64,000 nucleotides of DNA, taken from the NCBI RefSeq assembly GCF_003991155.1, contig NZ_CP031293.1; one strand, 5' to 3'. The DNA comes from Escherichia coli. Lineage in GTDB: Bacteria > Pseudomonadota > Gammaproteobacteria > Enterobacterales > Enterobacteriaceae. Positions 9,593-24,679 of the stretch are shown here, in pieces. Positions within the stretch are counted from its first letter, which is position 1; the number at the start of each line of letters is the position of its first letter. The notes beneath the pieces were generated by a model, which had not been told where the DNA came from, did not search any database, and saw only the letters and a list, made by a program, of their open reading frames with translations. The position numbers and the translations under genes are program-made.

Positions 9593-10309
9593 TTACGCAT
9601 TACGTTGCAACAACATCGACTTGATATGGCCGATGGCGCGCGTCGGGTTCAGCCCCTTCGGACATACACTGACGCAGTTCATGATGCTGTGACAGCGGAA
9701 TACACTGAATGCATCGCTCAAACCGTCGAGGCGGCTGTCAGTCTCGGTATCACGGCTATCGATCAGGAAACGATATGCCGCTAACAAGCCTGCCGGGCCG
9801 ATAAACTTATCGGGATTCCACCAGAAAGACGGACAAGAGGTTGAACAACATGCGCAGAGAATACATTCATACAACCCGTCGAGTTTTTCGCGCTGCTCTG
9901 GCATCTGTAAATGCTCGCGAGCTGGCGGATTTTGTCCATTATTCAACAGGTAAGGCTTAATTTTCTCATATTGCGCATAGAATTGTCCCATGTCTACCAC
10001 CAAATCGCGGATCACCGGTAAACCTGGCAGCGGGCGAATCACAATCTTCTTGCCCGGCTGGTTGAGTGCCGAAATCGGGGTAATACAGGCCAGACCATTC
10101 TTGCCGTTCATGTTCAGACCGTCGGAACCGCACACACCTTCGCGGCAGGAGCGGCGGAACGACAGGCTGGGATCTTTCTCTTTCAGCTGGATAAGCGCAT
10201 CCAGCAGCATCATGTCGCGACCTTCTTCCGCTTCCAGGGTGTAATCCTGCATACGCGGAGCATCATCAACATCCGGGTTATAGCGATAAATTGAAAACTC
10301 GAGTCTCAT
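9593..10309 (-). CDS. sdhB: Succinate dehydrogenase iron-sulfur subunit
   Basis: 238-aa ORF with Cys clusters (CREGVCGSDG, CILCACCSTSCP, CHSIMNCVSVCP). Confidence 0.97.
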   Translation of the reverse strand: MRLEFSIYRYNPDVDDAPRMQDYTLEAEEGRDMMLLDALIQLKEKDPSLSFRRSCREGVCGSDGLNMNGKNGLACITPISALNQPGKKIVIRPLPGLPVIRDLVVDMGQFYAQYEKIKPYLLNNGQNPPAREHLQMPEQREKLDGLYECILCACCSTSCPSFWWNPDKFIGPAGLLAAYRFLIDSRDTETDSRLDGLSDAFSVFRCHSIMNCVSVCPKGLNPTRAIGHIKSMLLQRNA

Positions 10310-10324
10310 TTTCCTGTCTCCGCA

Positions 10325-12091
10325 TTAGTAAGTACGAATCTTCGGCGGGAATGCCGGGCGCAGTTTCGGTTCCATGTTGACGCTTCGGCGCGTCATGGAT
10401 TCCGACTCTGGCAGATACAGGGAGTGGCACAGCCAGTTTTCATCATCGCGATCCGGGAAGTCGAAGCGGCTATGCGCGCCACGGCTTTCGGTACGGAAGT
10501 TGGCAGAAACAGCCGTTGCATACGCCGTTTCCATCAGGTTATCCAGTTCCAGGCACTCAACGCGCTGGGTGTTGAACTCGCTGGAAGTGTCATCCAGACG
10601 GGCATTTTTCAGACGCTCGCGGATAACTTTCAACTGCTCAAGCCCTTTCGCCATCGCATCACCTTCACGGAAGACCGAGAAGTTATGCTGCATACATTCT
10701 TGCAGTGCTTTACGGATCGCCACCGGATCTTCACCGTTACGGTTGTTGTTCCAGCGATTCAGACGATCCAGAGACGCTTCTACATCAGACTCGCTGGCAT
10801 CGCGCAGTGCGCCCTGCTCGGCAATAGACTCTTGCAGATGCAGACCCGCTGCGCGACCAAAGACCACCAGGTCCAGCAGCGAGTTGCCGCCCAGACGGTT
10901 AGCGCCGTGTACCGATACACAAGCGATTTCACCAACGGCAAACAGCCCCGGAACAACCACATCTTCGCCTTTCTCGTTCACAGTCAGCGCCTGACCGGTC
11001 ACTTTGGTCGGAATACCGCCCATCATGTAGTGACAGGTTGGGATAACCGGAATCGGCTCTTTCACCGGATCAACGTGAGCGAAGGTACGGGAGAGTTCCA
11101 GAATACCCGGCAGACGGGATTCGAGAACTTCTTTACCCAGGTGATCGAGTTTCAGTTTCGCGTGTGGCCCCCACGGACCATCACAGCCGCGACCTTCACG
11201 GATTTCGATCATGATGGAACGCGCCACCACATCACGGCCCGCCAGGTCTTTGGCGTTCGGCGCATAACGCTCCATAAAGCGTTCGCCATGTTTGTTCAGC
11301 AGATAACCGCCTTCACCACGGCAACCTTCGGTGACCAGTACGCCCGCACCGGCAATACCGGTCGGGTGGAACTGCCACATTTCCATATCCTGTACCGGTA
11401 CGCCTGCACGGATAGCCATGCCGACACCGTCGCCAGTGTTAATGTGGGCGTTGGTGGTGGACTGATAAATACGCCCTGCCCCGCCAGTCGCCAGCACTGT
11501 CGCGCGAGCTTTAAAGTAAACCACTTCACCAGTTTCGATGCACAGTGCGGTACAACCGACCACTGCGCCATCCTGGTTTTTCACCAGATCCAGCGCATAC
11601 CACTCGGAGAAAATGGTGGTGTGGTTTTTCAGGTTCTGCTGATAAAGCGTGTGCAACAGTGCGTGACCGGTACGGTCAGCTGCCGCCGCAGTACGTGCCG
11701 CCTGCTCGCCGCCGAAGTTTTTCGACTGACCGCCAAACGGACGTTGATAGATACGACCATCATCAAGACGCGAGAACGGCAGGCCCATATGTTCCAGTTC
11801 CAGAATCGCTTCCGGCCCGGTTTTACACATATATTCAATCGCGTCCTGGTCACCGATATAGTCCGACCCTTTTACGGTGTCGTACATATGCCATTCCCAG
11901 TTATCTTCATGGGTATTACCCAGCGCAACGGTAATGCCGCCTTGCGCAGAAACGGTATGGGAACGGGTCGGGAAGACTTTAGAGAGCAGCGCACAGGTCT
12001 GACCGCTCTGGGAAATTTGCAGCGCCGCGCGCATACCTGCGCCACCGGCACCAATCACAACTGCATCAAATTCTCTGACTGGCAATTTCAT
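10325..12091 (-). CDS. sdhA: Succinate dehydrogenase flavoprotein subunit
   Basis: Start set at the internal Met ([19 protein letters not shown]...), which overlaps the sdhD stop; FAD-binding motif present. Confidence 0.95.
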
Positions 12092-12821: not shown

Positions 12822-13529
12822 GAATAACGCCCACATGCTGTTCTTATTATTCCCTGGGGACTACGGGCACAGAGGTTAACTTTCTGTTACCTGGAGACGT
12901 CGGGATTTCCTTCCTCCGGTCTGCTTGCGGGTCAGACAGCGTCCTTTCTATAACTGCGCGTCATGCAAAACACTGCTTCCAGATGCGAAAACGACACGTT
13001 ACAACGCTGGGTGGCTCGGGATTGCAGGGTGTTCCGGAGACCTGGCGGCAGTATAGGCCGTTCACAAAATCATTACAATTAACCTACATATAGTTTGTCG
13101 GGTTTTATCCTGAACAGTGATCCAGGTCACGATAACAACATTTATTTAATTTTTAATCATCTAATTTGACAATCATTCAACAAAGTTGTTACAAACATTA
13201 CCAGGAAAAGCATATAATGCGTAAAAGTTATGAAGTCGGTATTTCACCTAAGATTAACTTATGTAACAGTGTGGAAGTATTGACCAATTCATTCGGGACA
13301 GTTATTAGTGGTAGACAAGTTTAATAATTCGGATTGCTAAGTACTTGATTCGCCATTTATTCGTCATCAATGGATCCTTTACCTGCAAGCGCCCAGAGCT
13401 CTGTACCCAGGTTTTCCCCTCTTTCACAGAGCGGCGAGCCAAATAACAAACGGGTAAAGCCAGGTTGATGTGCGAAGGCAAATTTAAGTTCCGGCAGTCT
13501 TACGCAATAAGGCGCTAAGGAGACCTTAA
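12822..13529. promoter_or_regulatory. Divergent gltA / sdhCDAB-sucABCD promoter region (708 bp, AT-rich)
   Basis: Large non-coding spacer between divergent TCA-cycle operons; individual sites not mapped. Confidence 0.6.
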
Positions 13530-14813
13530 ATGGCTGATACAAAAGCAAAACTCACCCTCAACGGGGACACAGCTGTTGAACTGGATGTGCTGAAAGGCAC
13601 GCTGGGTCAAGATGTTATTGATATCCGTACTCTCGGTTCAAAAGGTGTGTTCACCTTTGACCCAGGCTTCACTTCAACCGCATCCTGCGAATCTAAAATT
13701 ACTTTTATTGATGGTGATGAAGGTATTTTGCTGCACCGCGGTTTCCCGATCGATCAGCTGGCGACCGATTCTAACTACCTGGAAGTTTGTTACATCCTGC
13801 TGAATGGTGAAAAACCAACTCAGGAACAGTATGACGAATTTAAAACTACGGTGACCCGTCATACCATGATCCACGAGCAGATTACCCGTCTGTTCCATGC
13901 TTTCCGTCGCGACTCGCATCCAATGGCAGTCATGTGTGGTATTACCGGCGCGCTGGCGGCGTTCTATCACGACTCGCTGGATGTTAACAATCCTCGTCAT
14001 CGTGAAATTGCCGCGTTCCGCCTGCTGTCGAAAATGCCGACCATGGCCGCGATGTGTTACAAGTATTCCATTGGTCAGCCATTCGTTTACCCGCGCAACG
14101 ATCTCTCCTATGCCGGTAACTTCCTGAATATGATGTTCTCCACGCCGTGCGAACCGTATGAAGTTAATCCGATTCTGGAACGTGCTATGGACCGTATTCT
14201 GATCCTGCACGCTGACCATGAACAGAACGCCTCTACCTCCACCGTGCGTACCGCTGGCTCTTCGGGGGCGAACCCGTTTGCCTGTATCGCAGCAGGTATT
14301 GCTTCACTGTGGGGACCTGCGCACGGTGGTGCTAACGAAGCGGCGCTGAAAATGCTGGAAGAAATCAGTTCCGTTAAACACATTCCGGAATTTGTTCGTC
14401 GTGCGAAAGACAAAAATGACTCTTTCCGCCTGATGGGCTTCGGCCACCGCGTGTACAAAAATTACGACCCGCGCGCCACCGTAATGCGTGAAACCTGCCA
14501 TGAAGTTCTGAAAGAGCTGGGCACCAAAGATGACCTGCTGGAAGTGGCTATGGAGCTGGAAAACATCGCGCTGAACGACCCGTACTTTATCGAGAAAAAA
14601 CTGTACCCGAACGTCGATTTCTACTCTGGTATCATCCTGAAAGCGATGGGTATTCCGTCTTCTATGTTCACCGTGATCTTCGCGATGGCGCGTACCGTTG
14701 GCTGGATCGCCCACTGGAGCGAAATGCACAGTGACGGTATGAAGATTGCCCGTCCGCGTCAGCTTTACACCGGCTACGCGCAGCGTGATTTTAAGTCGGA
14801 TATTAAGAAGTAA
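13530..14813 (+). CDS. gltA: Citrate synthase
   Basis: 427-aa [42 protein letters not shown]... Confidence 0.97.
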
Positions 14814-14826
14814 AAATGACACCGAC

Positions 14827-14856
14827 AAAACCCTGCGTGTTCACGCAGGGTTTTTA
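14827..14856 (+). terminator. gltA intrinsic terminator (stem CCCTGCGTG/CACGCAGGG followed by TTTTT); probably bidirectional
   Basis: Hairpin and T-run read from the sequence; an A-run precedes the stem; the dctM stop is 4 nt beyond. Confidence 0.7.
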
Positions 14857-14859
14857 GTT

Positions 14860-16170
14860 CTACACCAACAGCAAAGATATTGCCGGGATATAGGTAATAA
14901 CCAACAGCAGTAAAATAAGACTAACCAGTAGTGGCACCGCTTCTCGCATAAATTGCCCGACAGAAACCTGCACGGTATTACATACCAGCAGCATCACCGT
15001 TCCGACAGGCGGTGATAACGTTCCTAACGATAAGTTGAGGATCATGATGATGCCAAAATGCACCGGATCAATGCCAAAATGAGCCACCACAGGTTTAAGT
15101 AATGGAACTAATATCAGCAGGATGGCACTACCTTCAAGAAACATGCCAAGCACCAGCAGCAATAGATTGATAATCAATAAAAAGACGTATTTATTATCAG
15201 TCAGAGATGTCACAAACTCCGCAACCGTGATACCTGCCCGCTCAAGGGAAAATATCCAGCCCAGCGCGGCACTCGCCATAATGATTAACATGACCGATGC
15301 CGTCGAACGCGCCGTCTCTGAGAGTGCTGTAAATACATGGCTGATTTTCAGTTCGCGATAAATTACAAAACCAATAAACATCACCAATAATACTGCTACG
15401 GCTCCAGCTTCCGTTGGCGTAAAGATATTTGCCCGAATACCACCGATAACCGCAACAATTAAGAACAGTGCTGGCCAGGCCTGCACCAGCGCCACTGACA
15501 CTTCTTTCGGTTTTGGCCAGTGTTCGCTGGAAGGTTTTAAACCGCGCCGAATAGCTACCAGCCATACAGTGACAATCAACATGGCGGAACACAGCAGACC
15601 GGGCAGGATCCCGGCCATAAACATGGAGCCGATGGAGACATCCGCCACCAGTCCGTAAAGGATCAGTGCAATACCCGGTGGAATAATTGGTGTAATCAGC
15701 GAACCACTTGCCGTTATCGCCGCCGCAAAGCCACGGGAATAACCTTTCTGTTCCATTTCCGGCACCATCATGCGCGATAACATCGCAGCATCCGCCAGGT
15801 TTGAGGCGCTAACGCCGCCCATCATGGTACTGACCAGAATATTAGCCCCACCCAGACCACCGCGCATTCTGCCAATCAACACGTTGGCAATTTGCAAAAT
15901 ACGCGCGGCAATACCGGTATAGCTCATTAACGTGCCTAATAAGATAAAAAATGGAATAGCTAACAGCGAAGGGGTTTGCGTCGTGGCAATCAAACGCTGA
16001 ATTGCTACCATTAACGGCACATTTGAATAGCAAAGGAAGTAGGTCAGAATGCCGCAAAACATCGCCAGCCATACCGGCATATTGATAAATAAACAGATGA
16101 ACATAAGCGGAATGATCATTAGCCAGTTATCCAGCCAGCTTCCCGCCAGTAATTCACTCAATGCTGTCAT
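14860..16170 (-). CDS. TRAP transporter large permease (DctM family)
   Basis: 436-aa polytopic membrane ORF; start overlaps the dctQ stop by 1 nt. Confidence 0.85.
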   Translation of the reverse strand: MTALSELLAGSWLDNWLMIIPLMFICLFINMPVWLAMFCGILTYFLCYSNVPLMVAIQRLIATTQTPSLLAIPFFILLGTLMSYTGIAARILQIANVLIGRMRGGLGGANILVSTMMGGVSASNLADAAMLSRMMVPEMEQKGYSRGFAAAITASGSLITPIIPPGIALILYGLVADVSIGSMFMAGILPGLLCSAMLIVTVWLVAIRRGLKPSSEHWPKPKEVSVALVQAWPALFLIVAVIGGIRANIFTPTEAGAVAVLLVMFIGFVIYRELKISHVFTALSETARSTASVMLIIMASAALGWIFSLERAGITVAEFVTSLTDNKYVFLLIINLLLLVLGMFLEGSAILLILVPLLKPVVAHFGIDPVHFGIIMILNLSLGTLSPPVGTVMLLVCNTVQVSVGQFMREAVPLLVSLILLLLVITYIPAISLLLV

Positions 16171-16631
16171 TATTCACCTTCCTTGCGTGGCGTTTTCTTG
16201 ATCAGGTGTAAGGCAGTAAAACAGGCGATACCGATTGCACCAACCGTGACCGCAATATCGATCCAAAACCAGGATATTTTTAATATTTGCGTGGTTTTAA
16301 ATGCTGTTCCGGCAGCTAATTTCCATGCTGACCAAGCCATCACACTCAGTAAAACAATAGATATCAGAGAGACAAATAACGTTAAAACACGTTGCACGCG
16401 TGGTGTCAGTGCATCAGCTAAAAATGGAATCGACAAATGGGTATTATCCCGCTCGGCAACGACCGCACCAAACATGACTACCCAAATCATTAATAAACCG
16501 GAAACCTCTTCTGTCCACTGTAATGGCATATGAAAACAGTAACGCATTATTACCGCAGCAATGGTCATGATTACCAATATAAAGAGCGTTAATACCGCAG
16601 CAACTTCAATCATTTTCCCTAAAAGACGCAT
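16170..16631 (-). CDS. TRAP transporter small permease (DctQ family)
   Basis: About 153 aa with 4 predicted TM segments; start chosen at the ATG (MRLLGKMIEV...) with AGAGG RBS rather than the upstream GTG. Confidence 0.8.
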   Translation of the reverse strand: MRLLGKMIEVAAVLTLFILVIMTIAAVIMRYCFHMPLQWTEEVSGLLMIWVVMFGAVVAERDNTHLSIPFLADALTPRVQRVLTLFVSLISIVLLSVMAWSAWKLAAGTAFKTTQILKISWFWIDIAVTVGAIGIACFTALHLIKKTPRKEGE

Positions 16632-16650
16632 AAACACCTCTGCTCTTAAC

Positions 16651-16672
16651 GGTCGGTGCCGAAACACCGACC
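16651..16672 (-). other. Intercistronic hairpin between the TRAP binding-protein and permease genes (GGTCGGTG..CACCGACC)
   Basis: 8-bp perfect inverted repeat with 6-nt loop, read from the sequence. Confidence 0.4.
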
Positions 16673-16690
16673 AGTCCTTATGCCATGAAG

Positions 16691-17659
16691 TTATTTCAGC
16701 TGTTGCTGAATAGTGTCATACAAACCAGGGGTCCATTCCGGGAATTGTTGATAGACTTTTAAGGCTTTTTCTTTGAAAGGGGCGACGTCAGGATAGATAA
16801 TTTCCACGCCCTGCTCCTGCATGGTTTTCAACATTGTCGCATCCTGCTCAGTGGTAATTTTCTGGCTATATAAACCAGCTTCATACGCTGTCTGGTGAAT
16901 AATATCTAACTGCGCAGGTGTCAGGGTACTGAAAAACGCTTCACCACCCAACCATAATGATGTATTGGTCAGATAGTTCACCATTGACAGATATTTCGCC
17001 TGCTCATGCAGTTTTTGCCCATACAGAACAGAAACCGGGTTTTCCACACCATCGATCATCCCCTGCGTCAGCGCCGGATAAACGTCTCCCAGCGGCATTG
17101 GCGTTGGGGTTGCGCCCATTGCTTCAATGGCTTTAATCTGCATAACGTTATTCGGCACGCGGATCTTCATCCCTTTCAGGTCTTCAGGTGTACGAATCGG
17201 TTTTTTAGCAATGATCTGCCTGGTACCGTACAGATAGTTGCTCATGACAATATGCACACCTTTTTCCCGTAGTTTCTGTTCTTTTTGTTTAAACCAGTCA
17301 CTGGCATAAATCGCAAACAGTTTCTGCGGATCTTCGGTTAAATAAGGCCCAAACAATATTCCCAGGTCTGCATCGTAGTCAGTTAAAAATCCCACATCAC
17401 TGATGGTGATAATATTCATCCCCATCAACGCTTGTTCAGTAATATCTTGTTTAGAACCTAACTGTGAACTTGGGTAAAGTTCGAAAACAATATCTCCATT
17501 GCTTTTTTTCTTCACAAGTTCTGCCCAGTGCTTCACTACTGTATCCGCTGGCTCGCCGGGGTTACTTTCATAGGCGATTTTGATAGTTACCGGTGCGGCA
17601 TTCAGCATCGGACTAAATAAAGCGAAAAGAAATAAAAGTGGTGTCAGTAATTTTTTCAT
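16691..17659 (-). CDS. TRAP transporter periplasmic solute-binding protein (DctP family)
   Basis: 322 aa; signal peptide MKKLLTPLLFLFALFSPMLNA; conserved KIRVP region typical of carboxylate-binding DctP proteins. Confidence 0.85.
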   Translation of the reverse strand: MKKLLTPLLFLFALFSPMLNAAPVTIKIAYESNPGEPADTVVKHWAELVKKKSNGDIVFELYPSSQLGSKQDITEQALMGMNIITISDVGFLTDYDADLGILFGPYLTEDPQKLFAIYASDWFKQKEQKLREKGVHIVMSNYLYGTRQIIAKKPIRTPEDLKGMKIRVPNNVMQIKAIEAMGATPTPMPLGDVYPALTQGMIDGVENPVSVLYGQKLHEQAKYLSMVNYLTNTSLWLGGEAFFSTLTPAQLDIIHQTAYEAGLYSQKITTEQDATMLKTMQEQGVEIIYPDVAPFKEKALKVYQQFPEWTPGLYDTIQQQLK

Positions 17660-17686
17660 TATTATTACCTGTAAGAGCTTTATCGA

Positions 17687-18883
17687 TTAACGGGGATCTG
17701 CCCGACAGACTGCACTTTTGCTGTAATCAAATGCTTTATACGTTAAAACAAACTCCTGATGTTCCAGTCGTTCTGCGGCACAATATTGACCGTTGGCGAC
17801 ATGTTCAATCACCTGCATAATATCGTCTGCAATATCGTCGAGCGTTGCGCCTTCGCTAATTACACGACCGGCATTAACGTCCATATCGTCAGATAAATGC
17901 TCCCACGTCTGCGGGTTATTACACACTTTAATAATAGGAGCGATCACTGAACCAATAACTGAACCGCGACCTGTGGTAAATAACACCATATGACAGCCAG
18001 AGGCGATAAGTTCCAGTGCTTCTGAGGAATCGTTAATATTCGGATACCCAAAACGAGGTTCACCATCAGGCACCACGTCCATCAACCAAAGCCCAGGAAA
18101 GGGCGTTTGTTGCGTCGGCAAAATAACGCCAGCAATCAGCGCATCGCCCGACTTGGTATAAGCCCCAAGGGATTTTTCTTCCTGAGTGGTTAAGCCGCCT
18201 TCAGCATTACCATTAGAAAAACTCCCCAGCCCCATCAAACTGTAATAACGTTCGGCTTTTGCCATTGCCACTTCGATGGCATCACGTGCCTGCGAACTAG
18301 CCGCGCGCGACATCATATGCTGCTCACAACCAAGCAACTCACCGCTTTCTTCAAAAATACAGGTAGCCCCTTTCTCCAGCAGTTGGTCAAAGGCACGTCC
18401 TACTGCCGGGTTACCCGTGATACCACTGGTGCCATCGGAGCCACCGCAGATAGTACCAACCACCAGGTCGCTCCAGTTCAGGATACAACGCGGTGTATCC
18501 GCAAGCTGTTCCAGCATTTCAGCGACCAACTGCTTACCCAGAGTAATGGTGTTGGTCGTGCCTTTATTTTCCTGAATGACCAGCGTATGGCACGGTCGCC
18601 CACTTTCTCGTACTTCTTGCTCCAGCCGACGGCGATCAAAATTCTCGCACCCCAGCGAAATAATCAGTACACCACCTACGTTGCTATGAATCGCCAGATT
18701 TTTTACCAGACGATAGCCATAATCGCTGGGATAACAACCTGAAAAACCAAAATACTGCACGTCGTGACAAGGAAATCCTTCGGCAATCTTTTTAGCGACA
18801 TGGCTGGCACACTCCACCATAAAGATTACCTGCACAGTATTACGAATACCCGGTCGACCATTTTGCCGTACATAACCTTCCAT
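17687..18883 (-). CDS. UxaA-family (altronate/galactarate dehydratase-like) large subunit
   Basis: 398-aa ORF MEGYVRQNGRPGIRNTVQVIFMVECASHV... resembling the C-terminal catalytic part of UxaA/GarD; start overlaps the small-subunit stop (TAATG). Confidence 0.8.
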   Translation of the reverse strand: MEGYVRQNGRPGIRNTVQVIFMVECASHVAKKIAEGFPCHDVQYFGFSGCYPSDYGYRLVKNLAIHSNVGGVLIISLGCENFDRRRLEQEVRESGRPCHTLVIQENKGTTNTITLGKQLVAEMLEQLADTPRCILNWSDLVVGTICGGSDGTSGITGNPAVGRAFDQLLEKGATCIFEESGELLGCEQHMMSRAASSQARDAIEVAMAKAERYYSLMGLGSFSNGNAEGGLTTQEEKSLGAYTKSGDALIAGVILPTQQTPFPGLWLMDVVPDGEPRFGYPNINDSSEALELIASGCHMVLFTTGRGSVIGSVIAPIIKVCNNPQTWEHLSDDMDVNAGRVISEGATLDDIADDIMQVIEHVANGQYCAAERLEHQEFVLTYKAFDYSKSAVCRADPR

Positions 18884-19194
18884 TATGCTTTTTCCTCTGG
18901 CTGATAGCCGGCATCATCATGATGAAAAATGGCGATGGCATTGCTGGCAAGATTATGGGAATGCACATGTTCACCCATGGCAATATCGCGAGTGGCGTGT
19001 CCGATAATGGCGCCGTATTTCAGAATCGAATCACCATTGTTCAGCGCTTCGCAGGCCAGTTTGTGACCCAGGGTAACGGAACTACAGGCCACCATTTCCC
19101 CCTCATCCCACCAGACAATATCGCCACTGGCGATGTCATTCAGCGCGACTACACAGTTATCTTTGGCATGTAGCTTTAACGCACGTTTGCGCAT
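18883..19194 (-). CDS. SAF-domain small subunit of the split UxaA-type dehydratase
   Basis: About 103 aa from MRKRALKLHAKDNCVVALNDIASGDIV... with GGAGG RBS; corresponds to the N-terminal domain of single-chain UxaA. Confidence 0.7.
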   Translation of the reverse strand: MRKRALKLHAKDNCVVALNDIASGDIVWWDEGEMVACSSVTLGHKLACEALNNGDSILKYGAIIGHATRDIAMGEHVHSHNLASNAIAIFHHDDAGYQPEEKA

Positions 19195-19208
19195 AATTCC
19201 TCCGTACA

Positions 19209-19964
19209 TCAGAAGCCGATCAATGCGCCGCCATCCACCACCAGCACCTGACCACTGACAAATGCCGCTGCGTCTGAAGCCAGATAAACCGCAGCCCAAC
19301 CGATATCTTCCGGCTTGCCGAATTTTTTCATCGGTGTCCGCCCCAGGATTTTGTTACGGCGTTCGTCATCACCTTCAATGGCCTTACGCAACATTGGTGT
19401 ATCGATCCAGCCTGGCGCAATACCGTTGACGCGAATCCCATGAACGGCAAGCTCCGTGGTCATACCGCGAATCATGCCGAGATAGGCTGACTTCGCTGCG
19501 CTGTAGCCAGTAACCAGAGGCTGCCCAAGAAATGAGGTCATCGATGCAGTAAAAAGCACACAGCCTTGACCGCGTTGTTTCATATGCGGCACCAGCGCTT
19601 TGGTTAACGCAAATGCGCCGACTACGTGAACGTCGAGTACTGACTCAAAATCACTGACGCTCATCTCTTCAATCGGTTTTTTGCAGTGATTGCCTGCGTT
19701 ATTGACCAGGATATCGATAGCCCCGTGTTCGCTAATAAGCGCATCAACTTTTTCCTGCGCGGCTGCGGTATCCCCGACATCCATTTGTATCCAACTGGCC
19801 TGCGACCCCAATGTTCCGGCGGTCGCTTGCGCCAGCTCGCCGTTCAGGTCAGCAATAATGACCTTCGCCCCGCTGACTATCATGCATTTCGCCATTGCCA
19901 GCCCCAGCCCACTGGCTGCACCGGTGATCAACGCGGTTTTGTTATGTAAAGAAAAAGCATTCAT
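19209..19964 (-). CDS. Short-chain dehydrogenase/reductase (KduD/IdnO-like)
   Basis: 251 aa; TGAASGLG nucleotide-binding motif, IDILVNNAG, YSAAK catalytic motif; AAGGAG RBS. Confidence 0.85.
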   Translation of the reverse strand: MNAFSLHNKTALITGAASGLGLAMAKCMIVSGAKVIIADLNGELAQATAGTLGSQASWIQMDVGDTAAAQEKVDALISEHGAIDILVNNAGNHCKKPIEEMSVSDFESVLDVHVVGAFALTKALVPHMKQRGQGCVLFTASMTSFLGQPLVTGYSAAKSAYLGMIRGMTTELAVHGIRVNGIAPGWIDTPMLRKAIEGDDERRNKILGRTPMKKFGKPEDIGWAAVYLASDAAAFVSGQVLVVDGGALIGF

Positions 19965-19975
19965 GGTGTCGCTCC

Positions 19976-20989
19976 TTAAAGGTCAATGAGGATTTTGGTA
20001 TACGCGCCGGGATCACTTGCCCAGTCGCTAAAAGCATGATCAGCCTGTTCCAGCGGGTAGTGAGCACTCACCAGATTGCTGACCGGATAACGCCCGGACT
20101 CCATCAATGCCAGCACGGCACGAAAATCCGCCACGGTGGCATTGCGCGAACCACGGATATCCAGTTCTTTCATCAGGAACTGCGCACTCTGATAACTCAC
20201 TGGCTGTTTGGCGTAACCGACATAAACCACACGACCGCTAAACGCCACCAACCCTGTAGCCTGTTCAATGGTTTGTTGATTACCCACCGCTTCAATCACC
20301 ACTTCCGGGCCGCGACCGTCATTTAACAGCACCAGTTCTGCCGCCACGTCACATTGCTGCGAATTAAGAAAACGTTGCGCACCGCATTCCAGGGCAATGT
20401 TCTGCTTGCGATCATCAATATCGATAGCAATTACGCGCGCCCCCATGGCGGATGCCGCGGCGATAGCGCCAAGGCCAATTACCCCACAACCGATAACTGC
20501 GACCCATTCACCCACATTAATTTGCGCACGTCTGGCCGCATGTAGTCCCACGGCCAGCGGTTCTACCAGCGCTAACTCATCAACACTTAAGGCATTACAG
20601 ACAATGACTTTATGTGCAGGCATCGTCAGTTGTTGCGCCATCCCCCCCTGACGTTGCACACCAAGAGTTTGGTTGTTTTTACAGGCGTTAGGACGACCGC
20701 TCAGACAGGAGCTGCACACGCCACACTCAGTGCAAGGCAGAACGACCACCCGGTCACCTGGCTTGATCGCCCCTGCCATATCGCCAGTTGCCAGCACCGT
20801 GCCGCCAATTTCATGCCCCGGAATACAGGGATAATTAACCAGCGGATTCAGTCCCCGCCATGTATTGAGGTCAGAACCACACAGTCCGACACGCTCAACA
20901 TTGATTAGCACTTCTCCTTTACCGCAGACAGGTTCGGGGATATCAACAAATCGCGCCTGACTTCCCTGCTCAATGGTTAATGCCTTCAT
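19976..20989 (-). CDS. Zinc-dependent medium-chain dehydrogenase (IdnD / sorbitol dehydrogenase-like)
   Basis: 337 aa; GLCGSDL, GHEIGG, structural-zinc Cys cluster CTECGVCSSC, GCGVIGLG NAD fold; AAGGAGA RBS. Confidence 0.85.
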   Translation of the reverse strand: MKALTIEQGSQARFVDIPEPVCGKGEVLINVERVGLCGSDLNTWRGLNPLVNYPCIPGHEIGGTVLATGDMAGAIKPGDRVVVLPCTECGVCSSCLSGRPNACKNNQTLGVQRQGGMAQQLTMPAHKVIVCNALSVDELALVEPLAVGLHAARRAQINVGEWVAVIGCGVIGLGAIAAASAMGARVIAIDIDDRKQNIALECGAQRFLNSQQCDVAAELVLLNDGRGPEVVIEAVGNQQTIEQATGLVAFSGRVVYVGYAKQPVSYQSAQFLMKELDIRGSRNATVADFRAVLALMESGRYPVSNLVSAHYPLEQADHAFSDWASDPGAYTKILIDL

Positions 20990-21001
20990 TCATTGCTCTC
21001 C

Positions 21002-21688
21002 TTACATTACGCCGAAGGTTTCAAAGGCCTGTACCGTGCTCATGCCATCACTGATGGCTTTGCGCACTTCACTTTCAGTTGCCACTTTTTCCAGGGCCTG
21101 GGTAATAACTTCTTTCTCAACAACCTGGGGAATAATCAGTAATCCATCACGATCACCAAACACGATATCGCCCGGATTCACCCGCACGCCGTGAAATTCA
21201 ATAGGTACGCCGAAGTCGATGACCTTGCCGCGCGGACCTTGATCTTGTGCGTAAGTGCCATGACAAAAGGTGGGAAATTTCAATTCAAGAATTTCAGCAG
21301 AGTCACGGGCGTAACCATCGAGTACCGCACCTGCTGCTTTCAGATGCATGGCACGGGTAGACATCAACCCGCCCCACAAGGCATAGCGCAGAGAGCTGCC
21401 CGTAGTGATGTAAACATCGTTCTCTTTGAGGGCATCCAGCGCTTCAAACATGATGCCAAACGGTTTTTCGCCAATCGCCGTCTTACCCGACGTCGATTTG
21501 GTTTCGTAAACGTCCGACTCCAGCACCGGCATTGCCCGGCCTGCCACCACCGTATTCACATCCAGCGGCTTGATTGCCGGAGAAACAAACTGGTGCATAT
21601 AGCCCAGCGTGTCGAGAATATCGCCAACCACGGCGGTAAATAGCCGGGTTTTCATCAAAGCAAAAAGTTCGTTATCACTCTTCCACAT
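21002..21688 (-). CDS. RraA-like protein, putative class II 4-hydroxy-2-oxoacid aldolase
   Basis: About 228 aa from MWKSDNELFALMKTRLFTAVVGDILD... (RraA/MenG-like fold family); first gene of the operon. Confidence 0.75.
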   Translation of the reverse strand: MWKSDNELFALMKTRLFTAVVGDILDTLGYMHQFVSPAIKPLDVNTVVAGRAMPVLESDVYETKSTSGKTAIGEKPFGIMFEALDALKENDVYITTGSSLRYALWGGLMSTRAMHLKAAGAVLDGYARDSAEILELKFPTFCHGTYAQDQGPRGKVIDFGVPIEFHGVRVNPGDIVFGDRDGLLIIPQVVEKEVITQALEKVATESEVRKAISDGMSTVQAFETFGVM

Positions 21689-21694
21689 TATTTT

Positions 21695-21728
21695 CACCCT
21701 GTAAGCCTGTTTAACAGGTTTACAGGGT
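21695..21728. promoter_or_regulatory. Nested perfect palindrome (ACCCTGTAA-G-CCTGTT-T-AACAGG-T-TTACAGGGT) at the 5' end of the operon; candidate operator or RBS-occluding RNA hairpin
   Basis: Read from the sequence; lies 7 nt upstream of the RraA-like start codon and overlaps its Shine-Dalgarno region. Confidence 0.35.
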
Positions 21729-21951
21729 AAGGAGAAAAAGCGCACAATACTGCGAAGGGCGTCACGAAAAAGTTGTGTATTTACTATTTCTTCGCCACTC
21801 TTTCACACAATATGTCTTTGATTCGCACTGCATGGCGGGCGCACAGGCGCAGTAGTCTATTGATAATCAAGGGTTCTGGAGGAAAATATGAAGGATACAG
21901 TCCCGGTATTCTGGATTTTACCGACCAGGAAAAAGTACAACAGGAGTAAAA

Positions 21952-22665
21952 ATGAGTGAGAGTGCGTTATTGACCAGCGTAACGTTATCGTCACAGGTCA
22001 AAAATCATATTCTTAATCTGATCGCCGAACAAAAATTGACACCGGGGATGCCAGTTCCCAGTGAAATTCAGTTGATTCAGAAATTGGGCGTCAGTCGGGG
22101 TATTGTGCGTGAGGCCTATCGTTCACTTGCCGCCCTGGGGATTCTGGAAACGCACAGCGGTAAAGTGCCACGGATCAAAAAATTTGATGATGAAGTGCTG
22201 CGCGTGGTGTTTGGATTTGCCCTGGCGACCGAACAAGTAACAACAGAGCAAATTCTTCAAGTACGTCGCTGGCTAGAGTTGGGCGTTGTGGAAGCTGCTG
22301 CCCGTAATGGCGGAGAAGAAGATTTTGCTAACCTACGGGCTGAAATGGCAAAAATCCGCGAACAGTTCGATGATGTCGAAAGCTTTATCACCCATGACAT
22401 CCGCTTCCATCAGTTACTCGCCGTTGCCTCAAAAAATCCGCTTTTTATGATGTTATTGCAGGCATTACATCAGCAATTGCGGCAATCCATCCAGGAGGGA
22501 TTAAACGCCCAAAGCGATCAGAAAGAGTATGGCAATCACATCATCACACTACACCAGAAAATCTGCGACGCTGTGTGTGCCAGAGATGTCGAAACGGCGA
22601 CTCAAGCCATGAAATCACACTTCGACAGCCCGGTCAGTGCACTGATCAATAATTCCTCGCCATAA
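21952..22665 (+). CDS. GntR-family transcriptional regulator (FadR-type C-terminal domain)
   Basis: 237 aa; N-terminal winged HTH (EIQLIQKLGVSRGIVREAYRSL) followed by an all-helical domain; divergent from the catabolic operon. Confidence 0.85.
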   Translation: MSESALLTSVTLSSQVKNHILNLIAEQKLTPGMPVPSEIQLIQKLGVSRGIVREAYRSLAALGILETHSGKVPRIKKFDDEVLRVVFGFALATEQVTTEQILQVRRWLELGVVEAAARNGGEEDFANLRAEMAKIREQFDDVESFITHDIRFHQLLAVASKNPLFMMLLQALHQQLRQSIQEGLNAQSDQKEYGNHIITLHQKICDAVCARDVETATQAMKSHFDSPVSALINNSSP

Positions 22666-22844
22666 GACTTATTTCAGTTCAATCGTTTACTCTTCCCTCT
22701 TTTACAAATGAGAGGGAGACAACGGTACTTAATACGCCCTTTAGCCAAAATCTGTCTTTTTCTTGATTACCGCTATTTTTTCGTTGAGGCGCATTCTTTA
22801 TGCTGTATCGATACACCAAAGGTAAGTTAAACAGGGAGTGACGG

Positions 22845-23891
22845 ATGCCAGTTTTGCAGTGGGGAATGTTATGTGTTCTGTCACTTCTCCTTTCTATTGG
22901 CTTCCTCGCTTTACATCTCCCGGCGGCACTCCTGCTTGGCCCGATGCTCGCCGGGATCATCTTCAGTATGCGCGGGGTTACCCTGCAACTCCCCCGCTCC
23001 GCTTTTCTCGCCGCGCAGGCCATTCTTGGCTGCATGATTGCGCAAAACCTGACCGGTTCGATCCTGACCACGCTAGCGGTGAACTGGCCGATAGTGTTAG
23101 CCATTTTACTGGTGACGCTGCTTTCCAGCGCCATCGTGGATTGGTTATTGGTGCGCTATAGCTCACTGCCTGGAAATACCGGTGCCTGGGGTTCTTCTCC
23201 TGGCGGCGCGGCGGCAATGGTCGCTATGGCGCAAGATTACGGCGCAGATATTCGCCTGGTGGCGTTTATGCAATATCTGCGAGTGCTGTTCGTCGCGGGG
23301 GCCGCTGTTCTGGTCACCCGCATGATGCTGGGCGATAACGCTGAAGCGGTTAACCAGCAGATCGTCTGGTTCCCGCCAGTGAGCATTAATCTCCTGCTTA
23401 CGATTTTGCTCGCGGTCGTTGCCGGTACGGCGGGATGCTTGCTACGTCTTCCTTCCGGCACGATGCTCATCCCGATGCTGGGGGGCGCAGTGCTCCAGTC
23501 TGGTCAGCTCATCACGATTGAACTCCCGGAATGGCTGCTGGCGATGGCATATATGGCAATTGGCTGGCGGATTGGTCTTGGTTTCGATAAGCAAATATTA
23601 CTGCGGGCATTGCGCCCACTGCCACAAATCCTGCTGTCGATTTTTGCTCTGCTGGCTATTTGTGCGGGTATGGCGTGGGGACTGACCCGGTTTATGCATA
23701 TTGATTTTATGACTGCCTACCTCGCCACCAGTCCCGGCGGGCTTGATACCGTGGCGGTCATCGCCGCAGGGAGCAATGCCGATATGGCGCTCATTATGGC
23801 GATGCAAACCCTGCGCCTGTTCAGTATTTTGCTGACGGGACCTGCCATTGCGCGGTTTATTTCAACCTATGCGCCGAAACGTACGGCCTAG
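22845..23891 (+). CDS. abrB: AbrB-family membrane protein (putative regulator/transporter)
   Basis: 348-aa polytopic [27 protein letters not shown]...; conserved position next to nei. Confidence 0.85.
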
Positions 23892-24679
23892 TGCTGACAG
23901 CCAGGGCACCAGTAAAACGGGCGAGATGACAGCGTGGTTTTCTCAATGATGCCGCCACAGCGTTCGCACGGTTCGCCATCACGATGAAAAACCTTAAAGC
24001 GAAACAGCGCCCCATGATATTTGTTTTCATCCACCTGCCCCCGCGTAGCGTAAGAAAGTCGCGGAATATCCAGTAACGCGTGTGCGAGTGCGTCCAGTTG
24101 CGCCGCATTGAGATCTTTCGCTTTATGATTTCCGGTCAACCCAACCTGCCAGAGGATCTCCACCCGCAAATAATTGCCAAGTCCTGCCAGAAACGCCTGA
24201 TCGAGTAGTAATCCAGCAAACTGACGGTTACGAAAGCGCGGTGACAATAATCGTTCCTTTACCACCTCTGGCGTCAGATTCGGATCCAGCACATCGGGAC
24301 CAACGCGTTGTAAAAACGGATGCGTGGTCAGTTGTTCCGGGGTCAACATCTCAATATCCGAGGCGCTATAAAGCAGAATGGTTTTGTCAACCGTTTGCAG
24401 TTTTACCCGCAATACTCGCGTGGTCTGCGGCTCTTCGCCGGTATCAACCACGCGCCAGACGCCGTAAAGCTGATTATGGCTGTAGAGCGTTAATTCGTTG
24501 GAAAAATGAGTTAACAACGCCTTACCACGCGTTTCCACATGGGTAACGTGTTGACCGATAAGTTGTGATTGATAAGATTTTAACTGCGGGAAGGCAAACC
24601 AGACATCAGTTAGTGGTTTGCCTTTGATCGCCGCCTCCAGGTTATCCGCTGCACGGCGGATCTCCGGGCCTTCAGGCAT
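23888..24679 (-). CDS. nei: Endonuclease VIII
   Basis: 263 aa; [18 protein letters not shown]-terminus and C-terminal zinc finger CERCGG...CPGCQ. Confidence 0.95.

Follow-up and report, generated by a model that had tools for sequence, protein, structure and literature searches.

In Escherichia coli K-12, L-galactonate is catabolized by the Lgo/Uxa system (LgoT/LgoR/LgoD, UxaB, UxaA, KdgK, and Eda), which combines a transporter of the major facilitator superfamily (MFS) and a GntR-family regulator with a UxaB of the mannitol dehydrogenase family, a full-length UxaA, a kinase and a 2-keto-3-deoxy-6-phosphogluconate (KDPG) aldolase. Transporters of the tripartite ATP-independent periplasmic (TRAP) type are linked to comparable enzymes in Chromohalobacter (Csal_1731-1738) and in the Halomonas Lgo/Lfo loci (PMC5507952), and a TRAP system located in an L-galactonate locus is reported to have dual L-fuconate/L-galactonate specificity (Vetting et al., 2015, as summarized in PMC5507952). 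The non-phosphorylating L-fucose routes 1 and 3 employ a heteromeric UxaA/GarD-type dehydratase and end in pyruvate with no kinase (PMC11199699, PMC6336799), while IdnD and IdnO epimerize C5 through a 5-keto acid, converting L-idonate to 5-ketogluconate and then to D-gluconate. Here we examine a cluster in a 64,000-nucleotide window of E. coli contig NZ_CP031293.1 (assembly GCF_003991155.1), in which eight minus-strand genes and a divergent regulator gene (14860-22665), hereafter the island, are flanked on the left by gltA (13530-14813, plus strand) and on the right by abrB (22845-23891, plus strand). The reading we favor, with a probability of roughly 0.45, is that the island would encode a kinase-free catabolism of L-galactonate, perhaps of L-fuconate, comprising TRAP uptake, C5 epimerization via D-tagaturonate, dehydration to 2-keto-3-deoxy-D-gluconate (KDG) by a split UxaA, and cleavage by an RraA-like protein.

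Under this reading the island would be a self-contained, GntR-repressed module for an L-galacto-configured aldonate. The DctPQM transporter would bring in the acid; a zinc-dependent alcohol dehydrogenase (Zn-ADH) would oxidize C5 to give D-tagaturonate (or its 6-deoxy analogue); a short-chain dehydrogenase/reductase (SDR) would reduce the 5-keto group with opposite stereochemistry to D-altronate; and the heteromeric UxaA-type dehydratase would produce KDG. The RraA-like protein, as a divalent-metal (class II) pyruvate aldolase, would then split KDG into pyruvate and D-glyceraldehyde, replacing KdgK and Eda, and from a 6-deoxy substrate the same cleavage would give lactaldehyde instead of D-glyceraldehyde. 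The GntR regulator probably binds a CCTGT-N3-ACAGG palindrome and would be released by a pathway intermediate. L-galactonate appears the most likely substrate, with L-fuconate (6-deoxy-L-galactonate) a likely second that may even be the main one.

Compared with the K-12 Lgo/Uxa system, the island has equal predicted chemistry as far as KDG and likewise a GntR-family regulator, but it substitutes a TRAP transporter for the MFS protein, an SDR for UxaB, a split for a full-length UxaA, and the RraA-like protein for the kinase and KDPG aldolase, and it holds all of its genes in one operon. By orthology it is no member of Lgo/Uxa, every protein being non-orthologous, though it most likely works alike. 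The TRAP-linked loci of Chromohalobacter and Halomonas, together with three from our own survey (L088, L089, and L096), share with the island an orthologous or analogous solute-binding protein (SBP), a Zn-ADH and a GntR or IclR regulator; in contrast to the island, and so far as the published loci are set out in PMC5507952, they carry UxaB, full-length UxaA and often KdgK, and none has the trio of SDR, split UxaA and RraA-like protein. Unlike the L-fucose routes, which start from the sugar, the island imports the acid, and it is without an L-fucose dehydrogenase, lactonase, mutarotase, SDR of the 2-keto-3-deoxy-L-fuconate (L-KDF) 4-dehydrogenase type, FAH hydrolase, and DHDPS/HpcH-type aldolase. 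The Zn-ADH and SDR resemble IdnD/IdnO in that they would epimerize C5 via a 5-keto acid, on a different substrate. The initial annotation of this locus had proposed import of an acidic sugar, redox interconversion, dehydration and kinase-free cleavage, an outline that comparative gene context supports. It had also left the substrate open-ended and found no match to a characterized pathway: the latter still holds, and our literature search found no publication on this island or this RraA subfamily, while the substrate can now be narrowed through the transporter orthogroup and the Zn-ADH/SDR pairing.

All three TRAP components are identified on the minus strand: the periplasmic SBP (dctP, 16691-17659), the small permease, by type a four-transmembrane protein (dctQ, 16170-16631, named by PGAP and taken with the PGAP start, with a weak YiaM match and a 1-nt overlap with dctM) and the large permease (dctM, 14860-16170, named by PGAP and scoring 389.8 bits with TIGR00786 against a cut-off of 268). 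DctP scores 175 bits with the NF037995 model (cut-off 50), and its best matches in the PDB are 4OVT (E 1e-142), which the entry title gives as Oant_3902 of O. anthropi, and then 4O8M of Actinobacillus succinogenes (E 1e-80), at identities of about 70% (68-73%) and 43%, respectively. Similarly, an AlphaFold2 model of DctP (pLDDT 89.8) retrieves 4ovt_A as the top Foldseek match, with a TM-score of 0.87-0.93. We presume the ligands of these structures to be L-fuconate for 4OVT and L-galactonate for 4O8M. The neighborhoods of DctP orthologues (65-74% identity in Pseudomonas paeninsulae, Salipiger, Castellaniella, Pectobacterium and an alphaproteobacterium) point in the same direction: in P. paeninsulae the gene lies beside a Zn-ADH, a UxaB-type reductase, a full-length UxaA and a PfkB kinase, the same enzymes accompany it in Salipiger and Castellaniella, and in Pectobacterium and the alphaproteobacterium the Zn-ADH is the sole enzyme. 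In E. coli UPEC132 (NZ_CP040456.1, 4303545-4310892; L093), orthologous DctPQM genes stand beside lgoD and the GntR regulator gene lgoR, at the position of lgoT in K-12. The orthologues from Phyllobacterium (91% identical to 4OVT) and Mesorhizobium (82%) also occur in clusters with the same enzymes. Arg167 of DctP, within a KIRVPNN motif, is invariant in 34 orthologues and may correspond to R147 of SiaP, the conserved SBP arginine for the ligand carboxylate (PMC4646407). The transporter orthogroup supports L-galacto-configured aldonates, L-galactonate or L-fuconate, as the predicted cargo. The variant lgo locus (L093, also L086) occurs in three complete E. coli genomes, in the form lgoD, lgoR, a Na+/H+ antiporter gene and dctPQM, with a DctP 73% identical to that of the island; the antiporter adjoining the TRAP system is suggestive.

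The Zn-ADH (19976-20989, minus strand) is predicted to be an L-galactonate/L-fuconate 5-dehydrogenase and should be the entry enzyme of the pathway. A Zn-ADH is adjacent in all ten examined loci with this type of DctP. These enzymes split into two clades, one LgoD-type (L086, Pectobacterium, Pseudomonas, and Salipiger) and another, clade I, that holds the island enzyme and those of Sodalis dw_96, Mesorhizobium, Phyllobacterium, Castellaniella and an alphaproteobacterial contig (L087); the island Zn-ADH is 45-74% identical to the Zn-ADHs adjoining orthologous TRAP genes. It also resembles polyol, RspB and IdnD-type dehydrogenases, which oxidize the penultimate carbon. Genes for UxaB and UxaA come after that of the clade-I enzyme in Castellaniella, and this enzyme should therefore supply D-tagaturonate, like LgoD. 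The SDR (19209-19964, minus strand) is a predicted 5-keto-aldonate (D-tagaturonate) reductase; its nearest solved structures include gluconate 5-dehydrogenases and 4z9x/4u8g, the latter presumably DhuD-type, and its orthologues in Propionivibrio and Citrobacter amalonaticus (72-77% identity) lie beside UxaC, while relatives in two further loci (L017 and L060) are 43-44% identical. NCBIfam scores stay below the cut-offs for IdnD (140 bits against 469) and gluconate 5-dehydrogenase (206 against 369). Collectively, these contexts support a link of the Zn-ADH/SDR pair to a putative C5 epimerization through D-tagaturonate.

The enzymes downstream of this entry step recur as a unit in other genomes. 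Sodalis has a GntR gene divergent from genes for an RraA-like protein, an MFS transporter, the SDR, the SAF-domain subunit and the UxaA large subunit, and Propionivibrio has GntR, DctPQM, RraA-like, SDR, SAF subunit, UxaA large subunit and UxaC, with identities to the island of 61% for the RraA-like protein, 72% for the SDR and 71% for the large subunit. The Propionivibrio DctP is only 25% identical to that of the island, and its best PDB matches are 4n15, 4ln5, 4n8y, 4mhf and 4ovr, which we take to be hexuronate (glucuronate or galacturonate) binders. Because an orthologous core is thus combined with UxaC and an unlike DctP, the entry enzyme and transporter appear to swap while the core stays constant. 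UxaC is found beside the core in four further loci, among them Citrobacter amalonaticus, a rumen metagenome-assembled genome (MAG) and a Bacteroidales MAG. The simplest reading is that the core converts a 5-keto-aldonate, either tagaturonate or fructuronate, into KDG and then further, and that it would receive this substrate from hexuronates through UxaC or from L-galactonate through the Zn-ADH. The complete island set, namely GntR, Zn-ADH, SDR, DctPQM, RraA-like, SAF subunit and UxaA large subunit, is present in Mesorhizobium sp. BAC0120; in the Phyllobacterium locus the only enzymes are the Zn-ADH and the split UxaA.

The dehydratase is encoded as a large subunit of the UxaA/GarD type (17687-18883, minus strand; PF04295 and PF20629 on the 99%-identical protein P0001) and a small SAF-domain subunit (18883-19194, minus strand), the two genes overlapping by 1 nt. 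The small subunit matches positions 2-79 of the galactarate dehydratase profile TIGR03248 and the large subunit positions 180-490, and PF08666 (SAF) is found on the Sodalis orthologue of the small subunit. Cys25, Cys50, Cys79, and Cys146 of the large subunit are invariant in 16 split and full-length members and are equated here, on an assumption from spacing, with Cys134/173/208/276 of C785_RS13685; four such conserved cysteines are putative iron ligands that are missing only from the sulfo-lyase SuyAB (PMC6336799). A sulfolactate sulfo-lyase (SuyAB) or a dihydroxypropanesulfonate pathway, considered since SuyAB is the best-known split enzyme of the UxaA type, was rejected, as the four cysteines are kept, the SBP falls in an aldonate-binding group and all contexts are those of sugar acids. 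Watanabe et al. describe a common C2-C4 configuration for D-arabinonate, D-altronate, L-fuconate and L-galactonate, so that sequence cannot decide between specificity for D-altronate and for L-fuconate/L-galactonate. In the related Sphingomonas cluster an aldo-keto reductase-SAF fusion, an SDR, an FAH hydrolase and RhaM make up the classical oxidative L-fucose pathway. The fusion in Sphingomonas phyllosphaerae (L005, 8703-10004) joins an aldo-keto reductase, probably the L-fucose dehydrogenase, to a SAF subunit (residues 341-421, 44% identical to the island small subunit), and physically joins the first and third enzymes of L-fucose oxidation.

For the last step, the gene of interest (21002-21688, minus strand) encodes a 228-residue RraA-like protein, predicted from PF03737 on the identical protein P0241, from its motif and from its neighborhoods to be a metal-dependent 2-keto-3-deoxy-hexonate (KDG-type) aldolase. 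Catalytically active RraA-like proteins, said to include TtRraA and Yer010C, reportedly carry the metal motif as D-X20-R-D or as G-X20-R-D-X2-E/D, and in the island protein the motif is present as G107-X20-R128-D129-X2-E132. Across the subfamily the G...RDxxE form is found in 55 of 72 members, and 15 of the other 17 have E-X20-R-D. In HMG/CHA aldolase (HMG, 4-hydroxy-4-methyl-2-oxoglutarate; CHA, 4-carboxy-4-hydroxy-2-oxoadipate), Arg-123 and Asp-124 are the catalytic and metal-binding residues, and most homologues keep one of two such motifs (PMC5065237). The island protein shares with that aldolase and with active RraA-like proteins (P. putida 3NOJ) the PF03737 fold, the essential Arg-Asp pair and a metal-binding acidic residue, but it scores just 33 bits against 3NOJ and lies in a sugar-acid rather than an aromatic catabolic context. 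It reaches 42.7 bits with the RraA equivalog NF006875 (cut-off 136; about 161 residues in length) and 53.9 bits with the LigK/PcmE model TIGR02798 (cut-off 304.5). FlDet of Flavobacterium sp. UMI-01, a 2-keto-3-deoxyglucarate dehydratase/decarboxylase, is likewise an RraA-family protein acting on a 2-keto-3-deoxy acid; it is set apart by an identity of 29%, by the alternative metal motif and by its neighbor, an alpha-ketoglutarate semialdehyde dehydrogenase, which the island lacks (PMC8563752).

Scanning 100,044 species genomes yielded 80 RraA-like loci (54-99% identity) from Proteobacteria, Bacteroidota, Bacillota, and other phyla, and neighborhoods were derived from our own open reading frame (ORF) calling and clustering. 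The RraA-like gene stands beside four types of dehydratase, namely split UxaA, UxuA-like (in Flavobacteriia, with LacI, a GH38 enzyme, a sugar porter and a lactonase), enolase-superfamily (with GH2) and IlvD/EDD, and it also occurs in pectin-type loci with KduI and GH105. Within 10 kb of the gene, the 69 loci contain one PfkB kinase, one Eda and one FAH hydrolase, and no aldehyde dehydrogenase or UxaB. With KdgK and Eda rare nearby and dehydratases adjacent, the RraA-like protein appears to occupy the place of KdgK and Eda after the 2-keto-3-deoxy acid, and KDG is the predicted product common to these contexts. An SDR of some kind adjoins the gene in 43 of 71 loci, which is not a count of orthologues; those of Flavobacteriia are about 27% identical to the island SDR, and in loci of Rhizobium, Izhakiella and Atlantibacter the RraA-like protein has a dehydratase as partner but lacks an SDR. 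At E<=1e-40 the island protein matches more than 7,600 database clusters, all under generic names. A broader proposal, which we hold tentatively and consider rather doubtful, is that the island protein would be the first representative of an unannotated and very large subfamily, one of metal-dependent 2-keto-3-deoxy-hexonate aldolases, that would replace KdgK and Eda in Proteobacteria, in polysaccharide-utilization loci (PULs) of marine Flavobacteriia, in rumen and gut Bacteroidales and in Clostridia, and that in E. coli of sequence type 131 (ST131) and its relatives would make 6-deoxy acids such as L-fuconate usable carbon.

Several other features of the RraA-like loci were observed. In about one-fifth of the subfamily the acidic residue is shifted, as E-X20-R-D-X2-G (e.g., L062, L069, L076, L081, L084, L071, L072, L082, and L085), mostly in loci with enolase-superfamily dehydratases and GH2 and in Clostridia; this form may mark a change of substrate. 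Flavobacteriia have a recurrent cluster (L018, L019, L022, L038, L044, L059, and others; ~10001-10684) of LacI, GH38, RraA-like, an MFS sugar porter, a protein of ~140 residues without family match, an SDR, a lactonase and a UxuA-like dehydratase, to which several genomes add a 384-residue unknown protein, an enoyl-CoA hydratase and a CoA-transferase of family III; it looks like a full kinase-free oxidative pathway for a sugar released by GH38, possibly mannose. The alphaproteobacterial contig L087 holds a second RraA-like gene (15542-16267, 241 residues) near its Zn-ADH/DctPQM unit, adjoining an IclR regulator, a thiamine-diphosphate enzyme and another TRAP SBP, a sugar-acid-like context.

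A number of these results weigh against L-galactonate catabolism through D-tagaturonate. The ligands of 4OVT and 4O8M that enter the assignment are presumed ones, the island Zn-ADH is just 31-36% identical to LgoD-type enzymes and lies in a separate clade, and E. coli already has LgoTRD, UxaBA, KdgK, and Eda, which makes the module look redundant for L-galactonate. The large dehydratase subunit is 58% identical to the Sphingomonas enzyme and 33% to genuine full-length UxaA (altronate dehydratases), and large subunits of Rhizobiales are 70% identical to the Sphingomonas enzyme of the L-fucose cluster; the 58% and 70% values would be equally consistent with L-fuconate or L-galactonate being dehydrated directly. 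Moreover, FlDet, the sole known sugar-acid enzyme of the RraA family, is no aldolase (PMC8563752).

The first alternative, which we regard as unlikely, is that L-fuconate is dehydrated directly, with the split UxaA producing 2-keto-3-deoxy-L-fuconate, the RraA-like protein cleaving it to pyruvate and L-lactaldehyde, and the Zn-ADH and SDR serving accessory roles in lactaldehyde/propanediol interconversion or L-galactonate handling. This would suit the presumed L-fuconate ligand of Oant_3902/4OVT, the closest solved relative of DctP, as well as the resemblance of the large subunit to its Sphingomonas counterpart, and it would explain the absence of a kinase, given that a 6-deoxy acid is not phosphorylatable at C6. 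The heteromeric UxaA/GarD members have, in addition, been inferred to be L-fuconate dehydratases (Watanabe et al.; PMC6336799). Yet transporters of this type are invariably partnered by a Zn-ADH, including where that is the lone enzyme, the succession of UxaB, UxaA, and KdgK after the Zn-ADH in several loci follows the logic of L-galactonate, SDR orthologues travel with UxaC, and direct dehydration would leave two dedicated dehydrogenases without an essential role.

It is improbable that the enzymes act in reversed order, in which L-galactonate would be dehydrated to 2-keto-3-deoxy-L-galactonate, oxidized by the Zn-ADH to 2,5-diketo-3-deoxygluconate and reduced by the KduD-like SDR to KDG, a sequence reported for 3,6-anhydro-L-galactose catabolism in agar degraders. 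The nearest solved relatives of the SDR, with gluconate 5-dehydrogenases and the presumably DhuD-type 4z9x/4u8g among them, are consistent with such an order, as is a dehydratase resembling L-fuconate/L-galactonate-type enzymes, and the product of the Zn-ADH and split UxaA of Phyllobacterium would be an ordinary KduD substrate; however, loci with a TRAP system and a lone Zn-ADH imply that the dehydrogenase takes the imported acid as its substrate, the clade-I Zn-ADH of Castellaniella precedes UxaB and UxaA, and SDR orthologues adjoin UxaC, which makes tagaturonate or fructuronate and not a diketo acid. It is more improbable still that the RraA-like protein is not an aldolase and acts instead as a FlDet-like dehydratase(/decarboxylase) yielding alpha-ketoglutarate semialdehyde, as a 2,4-diketo-3-deoxy acid hydrolase replacing FAH, or as a regulator of RNase E: FlDet does show other chemistry on 2-keto-3-deoxy sugar acids within the family (PMC8563752), NCBIfam lists a FAH-RraA fusion family (PRK12764) and SDRs of some kind are frequent neighbors, but the identity to FlDet is low and FlDet has a D-X20-R-D motif, FlDet adjoins its semialdehyde dehydrogenase while none of the 69 loci has an aldehyde dehydrogenase, three genera pair the RraA-like protein with a dehydratase and no SDR, the adjacent SDRs are at most 35% identical to the L-KDF 4-dehydrogenase-type SDR, and the RraA equivalog score is far below its cut-off. 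A FlDet-like oxidative route was rejected for its low identity, other motif and missing semialdehyde dehydrogenase, and so was an L-KDF 4-dehydrogenase plus diketo-hydrolase route, on the SDR identities to the classical L-fucose-cluster enzyme and the occurrence of RraA-like proteins without an SDR.

The layout of the locus, gaps and overlaps included, is that of the initial annotation. Taken with the PGAP starts, the minus-strand genes are tightly packed, two pairs sharing 1 nt (at 16170 and at 18883) and the rest being separated by 59, 27, 14, 11, and 12 nt; NCBIfam profile matches agree with every one of the nine family assignments, and none of the annotated genes in the cluster is a kinase. 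The cut-offs of function-specific NCBIfam models were reached by none of the island proteins. RefSeq/PGAP labels the same nine genes in the 100%-identical NZ_CP029747.1 (E. coli 2016C-3878 chromosome), with names such as 'UxaA family hydrolase' (twice), 'RraA family protein', zinc-binding alcohol dehydrogenase and FadR/GntR. For the genes of DctQ, the SAF subunit and the RraA-like protein, the longest ORFs reach GTG or TTG codons upstream of the PGAP starts (16632-16667, 19195-19299, and 21689-21745), that of dctQ extending to a GTG at 16667; the longer RraA-like ORF would traverse an operator-like palindrome, and the shorter ATG starts agree with orthologues. Between the convergent gltA and dctM we read from the sequence a terminator-like hairpin, AAAA-ACCCTGCG-TGTTCA-CGCAGGGT-TTTT (14826-14856), which is potentially bidirectional since it is flanked by an A-run and a T-run. 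Promoter and terminator scans performed no better than shuffled controls, and Rfam gave no match at E<=0.1 across 13000-24000, on which ground a cis-regulatory RNA in that interval was rejected. The GC content is 0.43-0.44 across dctQ and dctP, compared with 0.51-0.58 in the flanks.

The divergent regulator (21952-22665, plus strand) belongs to the FadR subfamily of GntR proteins according to PGAP, with its best NCBIfam matches, NanR, LldR, and GlcC, all below cut-off, and its Sodalis orthologue contains PF00392 and PF07729 (winged helix and FCD domains). Regulators of this subfamily pair an N-terminal winged helix with a C-terminal FCD domain and have palindromic GT-N-AC operators. Eight nucleotides upstream of the RraA-like start lies a 33-bp palindrome, ACCCTGTAAGCCTGTT-T-AACAGGTTTACAGGGT (21696-21728), whose 16-nt arms are 94% complementary and whose core occurs once in the window; it is plausible as a candidate operator of this regulator. 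Upstream of their operons, E. whittamii, E. albertii, two Sodalis, Citrobacter amalonaticus and Propionivibrio all keep the CCTGT-N3-ACAGG core, in place of which Rhizobiales loci have TTGGTCC-N7-GGACCAA. In C. amalonaticus (L010, 9835-9883) the core sits within a perfect 49-bp palindrome with 24-nt arms, far longer than in other species.

Of 5426 complete E. coli genomes, 660 (approximately one in eight) carry the island enzyme genes, as a single chromosomal copy with an identity of >=99%. The cluster is no chance pattern of ORFs, and its gene set recurs in Mesorhizobium. Carriers include EC958 (ST131), in which all nine island genes are intact, and a strain labeled O25b:H4-ST131, and the island is also found in E. 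albertii and E. whittamii. In E. coli SCPM-O-B-8794 (L006, 12495-12806) the small dehydratase subunit is not called and an antisense ORF of 80 residues appears instead, and the gene may be disrupted. The K-12 slot does hold a fimbrial operon, as the initial annotation had stated: strain J53 reads gltA-ybgD-ybgQ-ybgP-ybgO-abrB, whereas CFT073 and JCM 5491 have no island and just a fimbrial pseudogene remnant between gltA and abrB. The island of E. albertii and of one E. coli has a four-gene ybgDQPO-like chaperone-usher operon between it and abrB (L008, 3911-8835; L006, 3676-8576), and the fimbrial genes of E. whittamii are at the island's opposite side (L007, 17093-20579). The gltA-abrB locus therefore has at least four states across Escherichia. 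The earlier view of a lineage-specific island stands as regards its accessory status, the genes being absent from K-12 and CFT073. The island has not just taken the place of ybg, as both can coexist; this coexistence side by side makes differential loss from an ancestor with both as plausible as gain.

Alignment with the island-free E. coli JCM 5491 delimits an accessory segment of ~8.0 kb (14766-22757). On the left, identity to island-free genomes ends inside the last ~48 nt of gltA (14766-14813), where the 3' end diverges from K-12-like genomes and still encodes a similar C-terminus, and on the right it returns ~85 nt upstream of abrB. The position of the left junction inside gltA suggests homologous recombination with a donor that also carried gltA beside the island. 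No integrase, insertion sequence element or tRNA is annotated at either end of the island and no flanking direct repeats are visible at the junctions; with no mobility genes annotated, a mobile element was rejected.

Taken together, the island is most likely a variant, built of non-orthologous proteins, of a pathway already known, with a single new enzyme role, that of the RraA-like step. If this is true, ~12% of sequenced E. coli, including the multidrug-resistant pandemic ST131, would possess a second route for L-galacto-configured sugar acids that needs no kinase, and this would be a candidate niche or colonization trait that is genetically easy to test. The pathway as a whole would exemplify stepwise non-orthologous displacement in which the specificity of the transporter was retained. 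It would also give a new catalytic role to a huge subfamily now labeled 'RraA family protein', 'regulator of RNase E' or 'HMG aldolase', and would call for re-annotation of many PULs that appear to be without KdgK and Eda. The RraA-like step and the association with ST131 are what make the island worth testing.

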